DNA of 64,000 bases from a virus. The translations under genes and the position numbers were made by a program. Positions 4,760-44,027 of this stretch are shown here, in pieces. Position 1 is the first letter of the stretch. Each line of letters begins with the position of its first letter. The DNA lies in IMG/VR virus record IMGVR_UViG_3300037297_000388, positions 2,177-66,176 of that record; one strand, 5' to 3'. The notes under the pieces are model-generated. The model saw nothing but the letters and a program-made list of their open reading frames with translations, made no database searches and was not told where the DNA came from.

Positions 4760-5878
4760 TTGGGCGTCAAAAAATATACGGCGAGGGACGGAAAAGCATG
4801 GTGGATGGCTGACATCCGTGTGACCATGAGAGATGGTCGCGAGAAGCGGGTCAGGAAGAAGAAGATACCGACGAAAGAGATGGCCCTCCTGTACGAGTCC
4901 AAGGTGAAGACGGCAGCATTTGAGGGGCGCTACTTTGAGACGGGAAGCAATTTGACGGTCGAACAGGTCTGGAAAATCTACGAGCCCATCACGCGGCGTG
5001 ATAACGATTCATGGCGGGACGATGTCGGACGGGCCAAGCATTTGACCCGGTTGCTGGGGAAGCGGAAGGTCGAGCAGCTCGCGCTGACACATGTTGAGCA
5101 GTACCGCAGCAGGCGGATGGATGAAGTGAGCAACCGGACGAAGCGGGTGCCGGCGATCGGGACCATCAACCGGGAGGTTGGGCTTTTGAAGCGCATGATC
5201 AACTATGCGGTTCGGCGCGGTGATCTACGGATGAATCCCATCGCGCTAGTCAGGGCGCTCCACGAGTCCAATATCCGGCAGGTTGTGATCAGCGAGCGAA
5301 GGTTCGAAGTGCTGCTCGAGAAGGCGGACCCACCATTGCGCCCGATCATCCTGTTGGCGTATGACTGCGGGATGCGGAAGATGGAGATTCTGATGTTGAG
5401 GTGGAGTCAGCTGAACCTTCACACCGGTGTGGCCTATCTCGCCCCATGGGACACGAAGACGGATGAGTCTCGGGAGATCTATTTGACGGACAGGGCCATC
5501 CGGGAGCTCCAAGCGCTGAAGGGCATCGATGATGGGTTGTTGTCAATCAACGGCTACGCCATCATCAATCCGCAGACGGGCGAGCCCTGGGTGGACATCA
5601 AGAAGATGTTCAAGCGGGCGTGTGAGGCAGCTGGGCTCGTTTACGGCAGGGACAATGGGGTGATCTTCCATGACCTACGTCGGAGCTTTGTTACCAACGC
5701 GAGGAAGAGGGGAATCCCGGAATCGGTGGTGATGGCGATGTCTGGGCACCGGACGCGGAATGTGTTTGACCGCTACAATATCGTGGACAACGCGGATCTG
5801 AAAAACGCCGTCAGGCGGATGGAGCGGGCGCGGCGGGAAGAACTCCGGGAGCAAAAAAGGAGGCGGCCGGAGGTGTGA
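4760..5878 (+). CDS. int: Tyrosine integrase
   Basis: CGMRKMEI (catalytic Arg), KT, FHDLRRSF (HxxR), SGHRTRNVFDRY (H/Y); AAGGAGG RBS. Confidence 0.95.
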   Translation: MGVKKYTARDGKAWWMADIRVTMRDGREKRVRKKKIPTKEMALLYESKVKTAAFEGRYFETGSNLTVEQVWKIYEPITRRDNDSWRDDVGRAKHLTRLLGKRKVEQLALTHVEQYRSRRMDEVSNRTKRVPAIGTINREVGLLKRMINYAVRRGDLRMNPIALVRALHESNIRQVVISERRFEVLLEKADPPLRPIILLAYDCGMRKMEILMLRWSQLNLHTGVAYLAPWDTKTDESREIYLTDRAIRELQALKGIDDGLLSINGYAIINPQTGEPWVDIKKMFKRACEAAGLVYGRDNGVIFHDLRRSFVTNARKRGIPESVVMAMSGHRTRNVFDRYNIVDNADLKNAVRRMERARREELREQKRRRPEV

Positions 5879-6004: not shown

Positions 6005-6048
6005 GGCACGCCCGACAGGACTCGAACCTGTGACCCACGGCTTAGAAG
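6005..6048 (-). other. 3' half of tRNA-Arg(UCU); probable attP core
   Basis: Minus strand reads CTTCTAAGCCGTGGGTCACAGGTTCGAGTCCTGTCGGGCGTGCC (anticodon loop, T-arm, acceptor 3' strand); the 5' half is missing; 127 bp downstream of int. Confidence 0.88.
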
Positions 6049-6168
6049 AACTTAAAAATCGTTTCAGGAAGTAGGCGTAATCTTTAATATTTGTCAATCA
6101 TGACGGTCTATTGGACGGATGGTCGAGTGTCCGTGAGTCAACGGGAATCAACATGAATCCACACTGTT

Positions 6169-8031: not shown

Positions 8032-8060
8032 GAAAAGTCCGCCCGGAAGATGCGAGGAAT

Positions 8061-8206
8061 ACGTCGCCCAGGGGCACTGGGAGACGGAAAACGGACGTGG
8101 AGAGGGCGTCAGCCTGGGGTGTTGTCCCCAGCAATCCTCTGTGAAGCGTCAAGGCGGCTGCCATGCCTGTTGAACAGACAGACATCGGTTTAAGTCCGCT
8201 CTGCCA
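8061..8206 (+). mobile_element. tnpB-derived omegaRNA-like scaffold, copy 2
   Basis: 146-bp near-identity to 646-791. Confidence 0.75.
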
Positions 8207-8225
8207 GCCAAAGGCGTAATCAATC

Positions 8226-21625: not shown

Positions 21626-21858
21626 ATGTACAGATTGCGCGAGAAAATTGGCTTCGATACCACCCGCGACGCGGTGGTTGAGGGGTGCAACGCGGCAATC
21701 AACCTCAACAAACACGTCGCCCAGGGGTACTGGGAGACGGAAAACGGACGTGGAGAGGGCGTAAGTCTGTGGGCTGGCCCCAGCAATCCTCAGTGAAGCG
21801 TCAAGGCGGCTGCCATGACTGTTAAAAAAACAGACATCGGTTTAAGTCCGCTCTGCCA
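21626..21858 (+). mobile_element. tnpB C-terminal remnant plus omegaRNA-like scaffold, copy 3
   Basis: Mini-ORF 21626-21796 contains NAAINLNKHVAQGYWETENGRGEGV; NAAINL is the TnpB RuvC-III pattern; core 21714-21858. Confidence 0.78.
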
Positions 21859-21869
21859 AACTATAGAAA

Positions 21870-38779: not shown

Positions 38780-39712
38780 TTGATGATGGACACTGCACTG
38801 GCATTAATGGTTGATGACTCGAGGCAGGTCGCCGCCGGCGCAAAGGCAACGAACACGAAGCGCGCCTACCGCGGGGACTGGGATCGATTTGTGGCGTGGT
38901 GCATCGATGTAGGGACGGACTACTTGCCGGCGAGCTCGCAGACGGTTGCTGCCTACCTGGTACGGCTCGCGCGCGAGGGGCGCCGTGTGTCGACGGTTGA
39001 GCGGGCTGCCGCGGCCATCTCTCAGGCTCATCAGATGGCGGGGGAGGTGCCCCCTACGTCATCGGTCGTGGTACGGGAGACGATGAAGGGGCTTCGACGA
39101 GAGGTCGGTACCGCTCAGTCGCAGAAAGCCCCGGTGATGGCTGAGCATCTCCGCAGGATGGTGGAGCATCTCCCGTGGACTCCCCTGGGGCTCCGGGACC
39201 GGGCACTACTGCTTCTCGGGTGGTCAGGGGCGTTCCGTCGTTCGGAGATCGTGGCACTCAACGTGGAGGATATCGAGGAGTCGCCAGAGGGAATGGTGGT
39301 CACCGTCCGTAGGAGCAAGACGGACCAAGATGGAAACGGGAGACGAGTCGGAATCCCCTTCGGCGAACAGCTCTGCCCCGTGCGAGCAGTGCGATCCTGG
39401 TTGATCTCGGCGGGGATATCCTCGGGCCCGATCTTCCGGCCGATATCCCGAGGTGGGCGGGTGCTCGACAGGAGGATCAGCGACAAGACGGTAGCCCGGG
39501 CCGTGAAGGGGGCCGCGGAGGCCGCCGGCTACGACGCGAAGAAGTACGCGGGGCACTCCCTGCGCTCCGGATTCGCCACCGAGGCGGGCCGGGCTGGGAA
39601 ATCCGAGCGCTCCATCATGCGTCAGACTGGCCATCGCTCCGAGCGGCAGGTCCGTCGGTACATCCAGGACGGTAGACTGTTCGAGGATTGTGCAGCCGTT
39701 GGGCTGCTATGA
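38780..39712 (+). CDS. Second tyrosine recombinase (Cre/resolvase-like with N-terminal SAM-like domain)
   Basis: NTKRAYRGDW, RDRALLLLGWSGAFRRSEI, RRSKTDQ, GHSLRSGF, TGHRS...RY. Confidence 0.92.
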   Translation: MMMDTALALMVDDSRQVAAGAKATNTKRAYRGDWDRFVAWCIDVGTDYLPASSQTVAAYLVRLAREGRRVSTVERAAAAISQAHQMAGEVPPTSSVVVRETMKGLRREVGTAQSQKAPVMAEHLRRMVEHLPWTPLGLRDRALLLLGWSGAFRRSEIVALNVEDIEESPEGMVVTVRRSKTDQDGNGRRVGIPFGEQLCPVRAVRSWLISAGISSGPIFRPISRGGRVLDRRISDKTVARAVKGAAEAAGYDAKKYAGHSLRSGFATEAGRAGKSERSIMRQTGHRSERQVRRYIQDGRLFEDCAAVGLL

Positions 39713-39909: not shown

Positions 39910-39989
39910 AGGCGAAGAACATGGCGGGTGGTGAATACTTCGGCATGGTGTCACCACCCATAATTAAAAAATGCCGATACGGTGATAAA

Positions 39990-41399
39990 ATGGCTCGAAA
40001 ATTGGTAGAGCGGCCTCAGACGATAATCGGTTTTAAGTCTTCAAACGTGAAGCGGCTGTGTGCCGTCGAAATATCCCTAGAAGAGGGAAACCCCATCGTG
40101 CTCATCGGTGGAAGGAACGGCCAGGGAAAGAGTAGCGTGCTCGACTCGATTATGTACGCGCTCACAGGAAAAAATATCCCCAAGTCCGTGCTGCATGACG
40201 GAGCAGACCGCGCGGAGACATGCATCGAGACACAGGATCTATTTATCAAATTTGTCATCACCAAAAGTTCGTCACGCCTTGAGGTTCGTCCGCGGCACAT
40301 CGACATGGCCATTCAGAAGCCAAGGTTGGCGCTGAATAACATGATCGGAAAGATCTCCTTCGACCCGATGGAGTTCAATCGTTTGTCTGGCAGGAAGCAG
40401 GGCGATGAGCTCAAAAAGATCGTCGGGGTTGATTTCTCAGACATTGACCAGATCTTACTGGACGCCCGCGATGAGCGGACGGGGGTAAACAGGGACCTCA
40501 AAAGGGCACAGGTAGTGCTCGGCGAGCTTCCCTACTTCACAGACGCAGGCGAGGAGGAGGCTTCTGCCAGCGAACTGATGGAGGAATACCGTGGTATTCA
40601 GGCGCAAAACAGCGAGATTGGGCGGCTAGAGGGCGAGAAACGGGACAGAGAGCAAGGGATTGGGGAGCTGGACCGCGATATTGAGCGGACCCTTGACGAA
40701 ATAGAGAAGCTCAAGGAAAGGGTCGTGTCGCTAAAACATAGTCGCGACGAGCTCGCAGAAGAGCTTTCGCAGATCTCCAGCATTCTGTCCGATAAGGAGC
40801 TTCAAGACACCTCTGAGATTGAGGCACGTATCGCAGGCGTTGACGATAACAACAGAAAAGTCAGGGCGAACGCCGAATACCAGAAGCAGCAAGAGATAGT
40901 CGAAGCCCTTAACAGGGAGTCATCGACGTTAAACGAGAAGATAGGGGAGATAGAGAAAGAGCGCCAAGCCAGGATAGCCGCAGCTGATATGCCGGTAGAC
41001 GGGTTGGCGTTCAGCGAGGACGGAGAACTGATATTCAACGGTCGACCCCTGGAGGTTTGCTCTCAGTCCGAAAAACTACGCGTGTCCGTGGCTATCGCCA
41101 TGGCAGGAAGCCCAGACCTGAGAATCATTCTAGTTCGCGAGGGGTCGGCTCTGGATTCAGAATCGCTACGCACGCTCGGCAAGTGCGCCGCGGAGTATGG
41201 CGCAAGCGTTTGGGTGGAGCAGGTAATGGAGGAGCCGAAAGAGGGCGTGATTTTCATTGAGGACGGGATGGTGCTCAACGACAAGCGCGTTCAGTCAGAG
41301 CACGAGAAACGGAGCGGAATTGCCGCTACCGCTGGTCCCCTCGCAAAGGATGGGGGTGAGAAAGATGGGAAAGACGCAAATACTGGACAGTCATCTTGA
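39990..41399 (+). CDS. SMC/Rad50-like coiled-coil ATPase
   Basis: GGRNGQGKSSVLD Walker A, long coiled coil, CSQSEK signature, IILVREG Walker-B-like; start could be 39921. Confidence 0.85.
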   Translation: MARKLVERPQTIIGFKSSNVKRLCAVEISLEEGNPIVLIGGRNGQGKSSVLDSIMYALTGKNIPKSVLHDGADRAETCIETQDLFIKFVITKSSSRLEVRPRHIDMAIQKPRLALNNMIGKISFDPMEFNRLSGRKQGDELKKIVGVDFSDIDQILLDARDERTGVNRDLKRAQVVLGELPYFTDAGEEEASASELMEEYRGIQAQNSEIGRLEGEKRDREQGIGELDRDIERTLDEIEKLKERVVSLKHSRDELAEELSQISSILSDKELQDTSEIEARIAGVDDNNRKVRANAEYQKQQEIVEALNRESSTLNEKIGEIEKERQARIAAADMPVDGLAFSEDGELIFNGRPLEVCSQSEKLRVSVAIAMAGSPDLRIILVREGSALDSESLRTLGKCAAEYGASVWVEQVMEEPKEGVIFIEDGMVLNDKRVQSEHEKRSGIAATAGPLAKDGGEKDGKDANTGQSS

Positions 41400-41598
41400 A
41401 GAAGAGGCAATGAGAAGGATCATCGAACCAATTATGAGGCACCCTGGAGTAAGGAACGTGTTTCGTGAGCTTATCCGCGACGCTGGGGACGTCGCCCTCG
41501 AGGCGGTGCTCTGGAGCAAACTCAGGGAAGTCACAGAGCGAAAGCTGCAGGATTGCCAAAACAGAGAAAGGACGGGCCGCCTCTTGCCGGCCGTATAG
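41365..41598 (+). CDS. Hypothetical protein
   Basis: 77-aa ORF between the ATPase and transglycosylase genes. Confidence 0.45.
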   Translation: MGKTQILDSHLEEEAMRRIIEPIMRHPGVRNVFRELIRDAGDVALEAVLWSKLREVTERKLQDCQNRERTGRLLPAV

Positions 41599-41605
41599 AT
41601 AAACT

Positions 41606-42397
41606 ATGCTCAGATTTGTTACATCGCCGAGCAAACTCGGCTTGTCGATTATGTTAGCCATTGCTTTTATGGTCGGGGCCATCATCGCACCGGAACGGTC
41701 AACAGCGGACAAGGTGTCCGCAGACCCCATGTTTGATGCGTCATTGAATGCTCCTTTGAATGCTCCTTCGTCAGATCCATTGATGGTGGCCCCGACCGCT
41801 TTTGTCAAAAAGGTCGGACAGATGTCTGTCCGCATCCGGAGTATCGCTGGAGAGCAGTGGTTTGTCTGCGGTGAACAGCTCTCCGTTGAGCGATCTGAAG
41901 ACGTATCTGTCGCGATAGCCAACTCTCTGTTGACCAACATCGAGAGCGTCGGGCTTGATGTCGAGCCCATGGGTGTTCTCGCCACCATGTACAACGAGAG
42001 CGGGTTTGATCCCTGCGCACTTGGAACAACACCACGGAAGTGGGCCCAAGGCGTTGGGCTGCTCAAAAAAAAGAAGAGAACCATCAGCTACTCGAGAGCG
42101 GAGGTACTCGGTGTTGTCAATGACCAGCGCGCAATCCGACGGTTTGCCGGTACAGGCTTCGACCTCGGACTATGTCAGATCCTCTCTAAATACTACAGGG
42201 GGGAGAAGGAGAACCTCTTGAGTATTGGTGAAGGCGCGCGGCTTTGCGTGATCGAGATGCAGAGCAGGGCGCGGATGTACCGGACCAGTACCCCATGGCT
42301 GTATTGGCGGGGGAAGGAGACCGCGTGGTACCGGATTAAGATCCGGAAATGGGCGATGCGTATGGGGGCTACGTCTTCGGAAATGCGTGGGATTTAA
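41606..42397 (+). CDS. Exported lytic transglycosylase (SLT/lysozyme-like) protein
   Basis: N-terminal hydrophobic segment; ATMYNESGFDP (catalytic Glu), DLGLCQI. Confidence 0.7.
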   Translation: MLRFVTSPSKLGLSIMLAIAFMVGAIIAPERSTADKVSADPMFDASLNAPLNAPSSDPLMVAPTAFVKKVGQMSVRIRSIAGEQWFVCGEQLSVERSEDVSVAIANSLLTNIESVGLDVEPMGVLATMYNESGFDPCALGTTPRKWAQGVGLLKKKKRTISYSRAEVLGVVNDQRAIRRFAGTGFDLGLCQILSKYYRGEKENLLSIGEGARLCVIEMQSRARMYRTSTPWLYWRGKETAWYRIKIRKWAMRMGATSSEMRGI

Positions 42398-42399
42398 AA

Positions 42400-42507
42400 T
42401 GGTCGGTGGCGAAATGGTAGACGCACGTGAGTGGAGATACTTGCCTGGGCCCCGAAGTACAAGGCGCGCCCAGAAGCTCCATCCTGGTTCGAATCCAGGC
42501 CGACCCA
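42400..42507 (+). ncRNA. tRNA-like RNA A with extended non-canonical anticodon/variable arm
   Basis: Acceptor (T)GGTCGG/CCGACC(C)A, D-arm GCG-AAATGGTAGA-CGC, T-arm CCTGG-TTCGAAT-CCAGG; middle is TGGAG/CTCCA plus CTGGGC/GCCCAG helices. Confidence 0.75.
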
Positions 42508-42711
42508 CAACGTTAGAGGCCGAATAGGCAGTAACGATTGCCCGCAAGGGCCCCCGACGCTGCGCGGGGTTACGGCAAGGGTTGTTCCTGCCAACGCAGC
42601 ACATTTTACAGCGCGGAAATGCGCTCGACCGGCGCACAATAAGCATGGCCAGAATCAGGATGGCAAATTCTGTCAACAAGACCGCCACGATCCGGTGAGA
42701 GGCCGGAAATT
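42508..42711 (+). ncRNA. Hairpin-rich linker between the tRNA-like units
   Basis: GCCC-GCAA-GGGC, GGCA...TGCC, GCGC-GGAAAT-GCGC and CCGG-TGAGAGG-CCGG hairpins. Confidence 0.5.
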
Positions 42712-42909
42712 GGGTCGGTGACCGATATGGAAATCGGTGAAGTTTGACGAGGTTTGTAGTGGATAAAGCGATGCGTGAAACACTGCTAAAAATGAATATG
42801 TAGCAATGTTAACGGATGCGGAAGGAGAATGGGCAGCAATATTTGGTCTGGCAAGTGTACCAAGCTGTCAACCAACTTTCCACCCCGGGTTCGAACCCCG
42901 GCCGACCCA
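42712..42909 (+). ncRNA. tRNA-like RNA B with ~125-nt insert replacing the anticodon loop
   Basis: 7-bp acceptor GGGTCGG/CCGACCC+A, D-arm ACCGAT/ATCGGT, stem AAGTT/AACTT plus TGAC/GTCA, T-arm CCGGG-TTCGAAC-CCCGG. Confidence 0.75.
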
Positions 42910-42929
42910 CCGCCATGAAAGGAGGCATT

Positions 42930-43145
42930 ATGGGAGATTTGATTTCACAGATTGAAAATTGGTTCCGATATCATCCACCGAAGGGTGATCAGGCAGAACG
43001 GTACGAGCGTATTCGCGCTTCCGCCAAAGATCTGGCGATGGTGATTGCTGAGTGCACACCACTGTCGGCCGATCAAACCGCGGCACTCAGGCAGCTCCGT
43101 CAGTGCGTGATGACGGCGAACGCCTCTATCGCGTGTAACGAGTAA
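42930..43145 (+). CDS. Acb2/Tad1-like helical-hairpin protein (candidate signalling-nucleotide sponge)
   Basis: AAGGAGG RBS; FRYHPP..DQ.ERYERIR..AK.LA..I....P.SADQT.ALRQL..CVM.ANASIA. Confidence 0.6.
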   Translation: MGDLISQIENWFRYHPPKGDQAERYERIRASAKDLAMVIAECTPLSADQTAALRQLRQCVMTANASIACNE

Positions 43146-43159
43146 CGAGTAACGGGCAT

Positions 43160-43179
43160 GGTTCAAGTCCGTCATGCCA
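43160..43179 (+). repeat. Stand-alone copy of the 3' tail of the tnpB-derived repeat
   Basis: GGTTCAAGTCCGTCATGCCA differs by 1 nt from the end of copy 1 (772-791). Confidence 0.65.
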
Positions 43180-43252
43180 ATGACTCAAAGCCTACCAATT
43201 TCTACCGGCTCCGGTTTGGCCCTGTCCTCAAAAAGGTGGCCCCTCCAACCCT

Positions 43253-43290
43253 GGGGAGGCGCCGTCGCCTCGGCGCCTCCCCTATCTTTT
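43253..43290 (+). terminator. Intrinsic terminator
   Basis: 12-bp GC stem GGGGAGGCGCCG/CGGCGCCTCCCC followed by TATCTTTT. Confidence 0.75.
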
Positions 43291-43306
43291 CACAAAGGAG
43301 TACCTG

Positions 43307-43576
43307 ATGCATGATGACTACAATCGGTTGGAGAAAGTTCCATACCCAAATACTTCATCTCAAGATCAAGTGGCGAGTCCAGACGCGGTGACCAACCAAT
43401 GCAAACCGCGGGTGATTTTTGTCTGCGGATCGAACGGCAACCCGGAATTCTGCATGCACGGTGGCTGCTTCCCCGGGAAGAAAACCTGCCGGTTTTCATC
43501 GAAGCACCGCGGTATCTTTCTTTGCGTAAGCCGTGAGGCTCACATTGACTCCGGTGTGGTCGCACAAGAAACCTAA
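43307..43576 (+). CDS. Small Cys/His-rich hypothetical protein
   Basis: AAAGGAG RBS; C..H..C...C...C..H. Confidence 0.55.
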   Translation: MHDDYNRLEKVPYPNTSSQDQVASPDAVTNQCKPRVIFVCGSNGNPEFCMHGGCFPGKKTCRFSSKHRGIFLCVSREAHIDSGVVAQET

Positions 43577-43740
43577 CCAATACGGAGGCCCCTGCAGCTG
43601 GAATGGCGCACATGACAAAAACAAACAACCAAGGAGTGCAAATCTATGGTAGCGAACTCACGGGTAAATGCTGCGGCGCCGGGGGCCTTTTTTAAAATAG
43701 GTTTTTTTGGACTTAACCCGCGCGAATATTGGTTAACAAA

Positions 43741-43921
43741 ATGACGCACCTGTTGCACAAGATCCGGATCAACGAACACGTCGCCCAGGGGCACTGGGAG
43801 ACGCAAAACGGACGTGGAGAGGGCGTAAGTCTGTGGGCTGGCCCCAGCAATCCTCAGTGAAGCGTCAAGGCGGCTGCCATGGCTGTTAAAAAACAGACAT
43901 CGGTTCAAGTCCGCTATGCCA
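43741..43921 (+). mobile_element. tnpB-derived element / omegaRNA-like scaffold, copy 4
   Basis: Mini-ORF 43741-43860 MTHLLHKIRINEHVAQGHWETQNGRGEGV; core 43778-43921. Confidence 0.75.
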
Positions 43922-44027
43922 AAGCGGTGATCCTTGTTTCCGAGCGCGGGCTCCACCACCACATCACAGAATCTCACGGAAAACCGATTCGATACGTCGC
44001 CCTGACTGCAAACTGGGGGCTTGCAAC

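Follow-up and report, generated by a model that had tools for sequence, protein, structure and literature searches.

What might a phage do with an RNA that has the acceptor stem, D arm and T arm of a transfer RNA (tRNA) and a long folded insert in the place of the anticodon arm? The question is raised by positions 42712-42909 of the window, that is, of the whole 64,000-nt stretch of viral DNA analysed here (positions 2,177 to 66,176 of IMGVR_UViG_3300037297_000388), which makes up most of a 66-kb IMG/VR record labelled provirus. This element, hereafter unit B, stands in tandem with a smaller tRNA-shaped element, unit A, and just 5' of an acb2/tad1-like gene. An initial annotation had described it as a tRNA-like unit with an internal 10-codon frame, comparable to a miniature transfer-messenger RNA (tmRNA) of non-alanine identity, and had also envisaged an intron-containing tRNA or a decoy. 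The best description of unit B is that of an orphan variant among anticodon-less, tRNA-framed phage RNAs, and we lean towards reading it as a non-decoding 'cargo' RNA that would be processed by host tRNA maturation enzymes and co-transcribed with acb2. Phage tRNA genes are now mainly read as replacements for tRNAs destroyed by host defences. The present locus would illustrate a different use of the tRNA shape, with one RNA belonging to a family and one orphan variant, both carrying unrelated folded inserts and keeping only the part of a tRNA that is read by processing enzymes and by some synthetases.

The tRNA-like upper half of unit B and its insert

The elements of unit B and their predicted pairing are the following.

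42712-42909, + strand: unit B, a 198-nt tRNA-shaped RNA
42712-42718, + strand: 5' strand of the acceptor stem, GGGTCGG, with seven of seven pairs to CCGACCC at 42902-42908
42719-42720, + strand: U8 and G9
42721-42738, + strand: D arm, with a stem of 4-6 bp and a GG-containing loop
42739-42767, + strand: linker of about 29 nt
42768-42819, + strand: hairpin 1, which holds the mini-frame
42771-42803, + strand: mini-frame ATG CGT GAA ACA CTG CTA AAA ATG AAT ATG TAG (MRETLLKMNM*), preceded by ATAAAGCG
42820-42881, + strand: hairpin 2, 17 bp in three segments (GGAAGG/CUUUCC, GGCAGC/GCUGUC and UUGGU/ACCAA)
42882-42884, + strand: ACC, between hairpin 2 and the T arm
42885-42901, + strand: T arm CCGGG-TTCGAAC-CCCGG, with five of five stem pairs and the loop TTCGAAC
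42902-42908, + strand: 3' strand of the acceptor stem
42909, + strand: discriminator base A73

All the sequence features mentioned by the initial annotation are found in this interval, and among them the tRNA-like upper half alone exceeds chance. By the usual marks of a tRNA, unit B has a 7-bp acceptor stem, a 5-bp T stem with a TTCRANY loop, a D arm with GG and a discriminator base. The last 22 nt of both units, comprising the T arm and the 3' strand of the acceptor stem, are identical to those of genuine metagenome tRNA-Lys(CUU/UUU) genes. When both strands of the window were searched with ARAGORN in intron mode at the 95% threshold, three sites only were returned, units A and B among them.

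About 145 nt stand in the place of the anticodon arm and variable loop, and they are predicted to form the linker and the two hairpins. The proposal that the RNA cannot decode in the ordinary way holds. The upper half is present, and an anticodon stem with a 7-nt loop is not. The pairs of hairpin 2 have probabilities of 0.93-1.0 when the upper half is constrained, with a duplex energy of -19.2 kcal/mol, and this hairpin sits 3 nt 5' of the T stem, which is the position of the variable arm in class II tRNAs. With the upper-half pairs enforced, the fold of unit B lies at most 1 kcal/mol from the unconstrained minimum free energy, and its z-score against shuffles is -2.7. Folding of the whole 533-nt region as one RNA gave a z-score of -1.6, which is not significant, and a search of the window for antisense targets of the units returned only 11-mers at chance level.

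A phage RNA family with a tRNA-Leu-type frame, and the acb2 gene

Unit A is organised in the same manner.

42400-42510, + strand: unit A, a 108-nt tRNA-shaped RNA followed by a CAA trailer
42409-42424, + strand: D arm of tRNA-Leu type, followed by a 6-nt linker
42431-42482, + strand: hairpin of 52 nt, which abuts the T arm
42483-42499, + strand: T arm of the same type as in unit B
42507, + strand: A73, with the CAA trailer after it

In Rfam, the tRNA model RF00005 gives unit A 29.0 bits, a score that reaches the cutoff only by skipping the anticodon arm. A pattern search of IMG/VR with GGTAGACRC-N45-75-GGTTCRANYC, which asks for a Leu-type D arm and a T loop 45-75 nt later, matched at least 116 loci. 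Among the matches listed, 54 of 116 loci have an acceptor stem of 6-7 out of 7 bp at the exact spacing of a tRNA, against about 1.5 expected by chance. In these 54 loci the D arm TGGCGGAATTGGTAGACGC is nearly invariant, the inserts (43-75 nt) are unrelated, and CAA usually comes after A73. A generic scan of the same matches gave 201 tRNA-shaped units, 106 of which are expanded (96-191 nt). The D arm is of Leu type in 95 of these 106, a few having non-Leu D arms, and ARAGORN calls a tRNA in three of them. Family units often occur in tandem with a common acceptor sequence.

A covariance model, R1, was built from an alignment of 35 IMG/VR members, in which all seven acceptor pairs covary; the members had been selected for pairing, so that the percentage of paired positions is circular while the diversity of pair types is not. 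R1 matches unit A over its full length, including the ACAA tail (54 bits, E=4.5e-12). Unit A is a member of a widespread phage RNA family with a tRNA-Leu-type frame and variable inserts. No publication describing such a class was found in the literature. It was also observed that, in the IMG/VR loci L084-L199, CAA very often follows the discriminator base (ACAA, TCAA, GCAA) in expanded units and ordinary tRNAs alike, which suggests a shared context of 3' processing.

Unit B has the same acceptor stem and T arm as unit A, the T stems differing by one compensatory pair, U-A in unit A and G-C in unit B; the D arms of the two units are different. The architecture found in unit B is that of an intact upper half with a folded insert, abutting the T arm, in the place of the anticodon arm, and a hairpin abutting the T arm is common to unit A, to unit B and to the RNA at L002:2764-2892, presented below. 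Compared with the Leu-frame RNAs, unit B keeps the acceptor stem, D arm, T arm and A73, but its D arm is not TGGCGGAATTGGTAGACGC and no CAA trailer is present. With about 145 nt, the insert is at the upper end of the sizes, the longest unit listed being of 191 nt.

The exact 3' 22-mer and the other parts of unit B were also searched for in wider collections. A blastn search with unit B against phage records and plasmids returned nothing, nor did the 22-mer in IMG/VR. In the JGI metagenomes, the 22-mer occurs only in real tRNA-Lys genes, in attachment-site (att)-like 3' fragments and in two tRNA(UCA) genes. The latter (L051:539-612 and L065:2375-2447), labelled SeC by ARAGORN, have the acceptor stem and T arm of units A and B and are probably phage suppressor-type tRNAs. 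A gapped acceptor-to-T-arm pattern found nothing at the size of unit B and three archaeal intron-containing tRNAs at the size of unit A. One of these, in an archaeal metagenome-assembled genome (L082:1693-1796), has the acceptor and T-arm sequence of the units and an insert of about 35 nt in the D loop, a non-canonical intron position, and is unrelated to the phage units. The 18-mer of the D arm of unit B gave two chance matches inside coding sequence.

The position of the units relative to the surrounding genes is given below. In order on the + strand are found an SMC/ABC-type ATPase gene, a small open reading frame (ORF), a 263-aa gene, unit A, a spacer, unit B, the acb2/tad1-like gene, a T-loop-like hairpin and a terminator. 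Genes for an SNF2 helicase, an endolysin and a DNA methylase lie downstream of the terminator, on the + strand like the rest of the neighbourhood.

39921-41399, + strand: SMC/ABC-type ATPase gene, with generic SMC/ABC-head matches only
41606-42397, + strand: 263-aa gene, without family match, its stop codon 3 nt 5' of unit A
42511-42711, + strand: G+C-rich spacer of 201 nt between units A and B, without detectable coding signal
42930-43145, + strand: acb2/tad1-like gene (71 aa), with ribosome-binding site AGGAGG at 42920-42925 and its start 21 nt past unit B
43154-43179, + strand: stand-alone hairpin with the T-loop-like loop GGTTCAAGTCC and a GCCA end, directly 3' of acb2
43253-43282, + strand: intrinsic terminator-like hairpin with a T run, the first such hairpin 3' of the units

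The acb2/tad1-like product matches the Pfam family Acb2_Tad1_hairpin (E=5e-14) and also phrog_1454. From 41400 to 43700 no sigma-70-like promoter was predicted, and the first terminator comes only past acb2, so that the units and their flanking genes are probably transcribed together; units A and B and acb2 would thereby probably form one transcription unit. Acb2 homologues were found at 40 IMG/VR loci. In the two closest ones, L002 and L003 (72-74% identity, effectively one lineage), an RNA of R1 type (68 bits) lies at 2764-2892 of each locus and ends 76 nt 5' of acb2. Both loci have a second non-decoding tRNA-shaped RNA further upstream; in L003 (2436-2509) this is a 74-nt cloverleaf whose 'anticodon' loop has 3 nt only. 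The remaining Acb2 loci are without such RNAs, and three of them have ordinary tRNAs nearby. The pairing of a non-decoding tRNA-shaped RNA with acb2 is thus recurrent in the nearest relatives.

Possible roles of unit B

Unit B retains the part of a tRNA that maturation enzymes read, namely an acceptor stem stacked on the T arm, a D arm with GG, and A73. In the reading that we favour, RNase P would cut at G42712, and a 3' tRNA-processing activity together with the CCA-adding enzyme would finish the end at A42909. A stable, L-shaped RNA would be released, in which the tRNA-shaped body would serve for stability and the hairpins would be the working cargo. RNase P and 3' processing would excise unit A from the transcript as well, and the same cuts would provide the acb2 message with a 5' end of its own, a short way 5' of the ribosome-binding site. 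Because unit B lies beside the gene of an anti-CBASS/anti-Thoeris sponge, a role of the cargo in counter-defence or in host takeover appears most likely. The function of decoy envisaged by the initial annotation would be compatible with the evidence, among the tasks that an RNA of tRNA shape might perform without decoding. With a temperate phage and two units beside a known anti-defence gene, the locus offers a small system for testing their role.

Several observations weigh against this cargo reading. The D arm of unit B can be drawn only with a 3-nt linker at positions 8-9 or with a 6-nt variable loop. ARAGORN with default settings finds no tRNA in unit B, and RF00005 gives no report at E<=10. 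R1 matches the T arm of unit B only (10.3 bits, E=1.3), and unit B falls outside the Leu-frame family; the loci of this family were themselves ascertained with a Leu-type pattern. Finally, searches of phage records, IMG/VR, GTDB genomes and JGI metagenomes gave no homologue of unit B, and selection on its insert therefore cannot be shown.

A more elaborate scheme, which we consider unlikely, is that units A and B would be aminoacylatable but non-decoding, or would be decoys by their acceptor ends, acting with Acb2 as an RNA-plus-protein counter-defence cassette. Leucyl-tRNA synthetase (LeuRS) ignores the anticodon. Since the family keeps tRNA-Leu features read by LeuRS (A73 and the geometry of the D loop), aminoacylation may be envisaged. 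If so, the units may sequester defence enzymes directed against tRNA 3' ends or tRNA bodies, or may feed or block an aminoacyl-tRNA-dependent pathway of the host. As for a decoy of PARIS type, the determinants of AriB lie in the anticodon stem-loop and the D loop (bioRxiv 10.1101/2025.02.04.636281), and an anticodon-less RNA is not an obvious candidate for this reason.

Other explanations take the insert itself as the informative part. In the tmRNA-like one, unit B would be a miniature rescue RNA charged with an amino acid other than alanine, the 10-codon frame being the template of the tag. As in tmRNA (SsrA, working with SmpB), a tRNA-like acceptor and T-arm domain closes a large insert and the anticodon is dispensable. 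There is also a short frame, which spans the 5' strand, the loop and the beginning of the 3' strand of hairpin 1, and its stop codon TAG (42801-42803) indeed lies in the TGCTA/TAGCA hairpin that had been noticed (strands at 42784-42788 and 42801-42805). The third acceptor pair is G3-C70 and not the G3-U70 of tmRNA, as had also been noticed, which excludes an alanine identity and counts against a tmRNA. The frame itself is of chance length: among shuffles of unit B, 73% contain a complete ATG frame of 10 codons or more, and so do 58% of all 198-nt stretches of the sequence analysed. The mini-frame has no Shine-Dalgarno sequence upstream, its start is base-paired in the predicted fold, and the peptide MRETLLKMNM has neither a hydrophobic, ALAA-like degron end nor a conserved resume codon in its template. 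Unit B has a true D stem, which tmRNA lacks. Pseudoknots lie outside what the folding program predicts, and 198 nt leave little room for the set found in tmRNA. Bacterial tmRNAs usually exceed 260 nt. ARAGORN in tmRNA mode gave no gene either by default or at the 70% threshold, Rfam gave no match at gathering scores, and at E<=10 the tmRNA family RF00023 aligned with the T arm of unit B only (6.5 bits against a cutoff of 47). No SmpB gene was found in the record; a host copy would serve. As far as the sequence allows, the tmRNA-like reading is refuted, and we give it next to no chance; a tempting false lead, the chance-level frame of a 'mini-tmRNA', is thereby removed. In the intron-based explanation, unit B would be a tRNA-Val(GAC) gene, whose transcript would lose a 124-nt insert at 37/38, either at a junction resembling a bulge-helix-bulge or by self-splicing, and would then be a decoding tRNA. 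This is the call made by ARAGORN for unit B in intron mode at the 95% threshold, while unit A is called tRNA-Ser(GGA) with a 26-nt intron. The cloverleaf drawn for unit B has the anticodon stem GAAGU/ACUUU, the loop UUGACGA (with U33 and G37), a 5-nt variable loop and A73. A junction can be drawn with the 5-bp stem, a 3-nt bulge (CC|A), a 4-5-bp helix UUGA(C)/(G)UCAA, a bulge of 2-3 nt ((C)G|A) and a 6-bp helix GGUUUG/CAAGCU. In this respect unit B can be likened to archaeal pre-tRNAs with bulge-helix-bulge introns, where an insert is likewise placed at 37/38, but its relaxed junction is of the 3-(4/5)-(2/3) type and not the canonical 3-4-3. Moreover, when the insert alone was shuffled, ARAGORN still called a tRNA in 8% (default) and 44% (95% threshold) of unit B copies, and in 81% and 99.5% of unit A copies. 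As the calls survive such shuffling, they reflect the upper half and are no evidence for an intron. The drawing also requires that the acceptor and D stems be joined by a 3-nt linker. The interrupted helix that had been proposed to continue the anticodon stem (AAGTT and TGAC at 42740-42748, facing GTCA at 42867-42870 and AACTT at 42874-42878) is real as a complementarity, with a duplex energy of -11.3 kcal/mol. However, 6.3% of shuffles equal or beat it, which makes it not significant, and it has an ensemble probability of about zero when the upper half is fixed. Its 3' strand pairs better with 42821-42848 (-19.2 kcal/mol), within the competing local hairpin at 42820-42881 (P>0.93), a rival 7.5 kcal/mol better. 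The CTGTCAA at 42865-42871, taken previously for an Asp-type loop, falls inside this same hairpin 2 without a flanking anticodon stem. As regards the means of splicing, neither RF00028 (group I) nor any other ribozyme was matched in Rfam at E<=10, and neither a splicing endonuclease (PF01974) nor RtcB was matched in the record. The endolysin has Amidase_2 and PG_binding_1 domains; directed at peptidoglycan, it points to a bacterial host. An insert of 124 nt is smaller than the known group I introns, and splicing endonucleases of the bulge-helix-bulge type are not known in bacteria. The case for an intron is weak; unit B is most probably not spliced into a tRNA, and we hold this explanation to be quite improbable.

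Two further explanations dispense with a functional RNA. Unit B might be a relic without function: a tRNA-like gene that arose by duplication or recombination would have lost its middle to an insertion and would not yet have decayed. With no homologue, purifying selection is not demonstrable; the insert resembles neither other inserts nor phage targets, and the slot between the 263-aa gene and the SNF2 helicase gene is variable in relatives. Against these points, all the stems of the upper half are perfect, the only difference from unit A in the T stem is the compensatory one, and the fold is better than that of shuffles by the z-score given above. In addition, compact phage operons seldom retain 200 nt of junk directly 5' of a ribosome-binding site, and the same kind of RNA precedes acb2 in the nearest relatives. 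We regard the relic as a not very likely outcome. It may also be imagined that the units are recombination sites or mimics of an integration target, copies of the 3' end of host tRNA-Lys used by a second tyrosine recombinase (38780-39712), whose gene lies 2.7 kb upstream. The 22 nt identical to tRNA-Lys 3' ends agree with this, as do the bare tRNA-Lys 3' fragments of metagenome contigs, which are att-like remnants. However, both units also possess a D arm and the 5' strand that completes the acceptor stem, neither of which is required in an att site; the RNA family that includes unit A has covarying stems, and the att-like site adjacent to the integrase is the 3' fragment of a tRNA-Arg(UCU) at 6008-6056. 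That the units are such sites is very improbable.

The cargo reading may finally be set beside known systems. Phage T4 encodes rnaC and rnaD, annotated as small stable RNAs (species 1 and 2; NC_000866, 70908-71171, with rnaC at 70908-71046). Like unit B, these RNAs (119-139 nt) are phage-encoded and have no assigned function; they are stable, as is proposed for unit B, and they lie beside tRNA genes. The 3' end of rnaC consists of a canonical T arm, CCGGGTTCGAATCCCGG, of the 3' strand and of ACAA. R1 matches rnaC weakly (22.6 bits) with a mispaired acceptor stem, and rnaC is possibly a distant analogue rather than a clear member of the R1 family. In contrast with unit B, the T4 RNAs are in a tRNA cluster and not beside an anti-defence gene, and there is no sequence similarity between them and unit B. 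YrlA-type Y RNAs, which work with Ro60/Rsr, also have a module with D, T and acceptor elements that is recognised by tRNA enzymes, some of them being cut by RNase P and given CCA (PMC4201824). However, the 'acceptor' of YrlA forms a closed stem-loop, and both termini of the RNA are found on the side of the anticodon (PMC4201824), whereas those of unit B are at the acceptor stem. A Ro60 (TROVE) gene, which YrlA would need nearby, had no match here, and Rfam was also empty. In engineered tRNA scaffolds for recombinant RNA, the tRNA body protects a foreign RNA placed at the anticodon position (PMC3753655, PMC3401473), and plant mitochondrial 't-elements' define the ends of mRNAs (PMC1920247). In both cases, as proposed for unit B, RNase P and 3' processing are brought in by a tRNA body, and the transcript is thereby protected or punctuated. 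The scaffolds being man-made and the t-elements organellar, these are functional analogies only, without homology to unit B.

Neighbouring genes and dispersed repeats

The terminase encoded by the record has at most 31% identity with that of any phage record, which places the record far from cultured phages. The ATPase and the 263-aa protein upstream of the units were considered in a PARIS-like reading, which was rejected: the ATPase has a generic SMC/ABC head and is not AriA, and neither PADLOC nor Pfam gave a match for the 263-aa protein. This protein, also without PHROG match, has a hydrophobic N-terminal segment and the motifs NESGFDPC and GLCQ, which recall lytic transglycosylases. No relatives of the ATPase or of the 263-aa protein were found in IMG/VR. 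In metagenomes, 16 homologues of the 263-aa protein were found, which sit in phage replication modules beside genes of DNA polymerase A or SNF2 helicase (loci L068-L075). No unit-B-like RNA was seen in the contexts of these homologues. In L068-L070, the sole syntenic lineage for the 263-aa gene, a genuine tRNA-Pro(TGG) lies 3' of it. The slot between the 263-aa gene and the SNF2 helicase gene, which varies among relatives, would thus be an accessory tRNA/RNA position, since a tRNA-Pro occupies it in the syntenic lineage. ARAGORN finds no ordinary tRNA gene in the phage itself, so that the two units do not represent the leftovers of a tRNA cluster. ORFs overlapping the two units have no family match. 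In the spacer at 42511-42711, overlapping ORFs have no Pfam match, and searches for repeats and similarity returned nothing.

Elsewhere in the window, the 3' part (about 48 nt, from the anticodon loop to the CC end) of a gene resembling tRNA-Arg(UCU) is found at 6008-6056, on the - strand. This fragment lies in an AT-rich gap beside the gene of a tyrosine integrase (4760-5878; Pfam 1e-17), and, in this record labelled provirus, it has the appearance of an intact attP.

Four intergenic repeats of about 150 nt, with a mean column identity of 80%, are also dispersed on the + strand of the window, at approximately 640-800, 8060-8210, 21710-21860 and 43780-43925. No Rfam family matches them. Each of the four closes with a T-loop-like hairpin, CGGTTTAAGTCCG, followed by GCCA, and the hairpin at 43154-43179, 3' of acb2, is similar. 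These dispersed repeats may be further processing signals that resemble the end of a tRNA.

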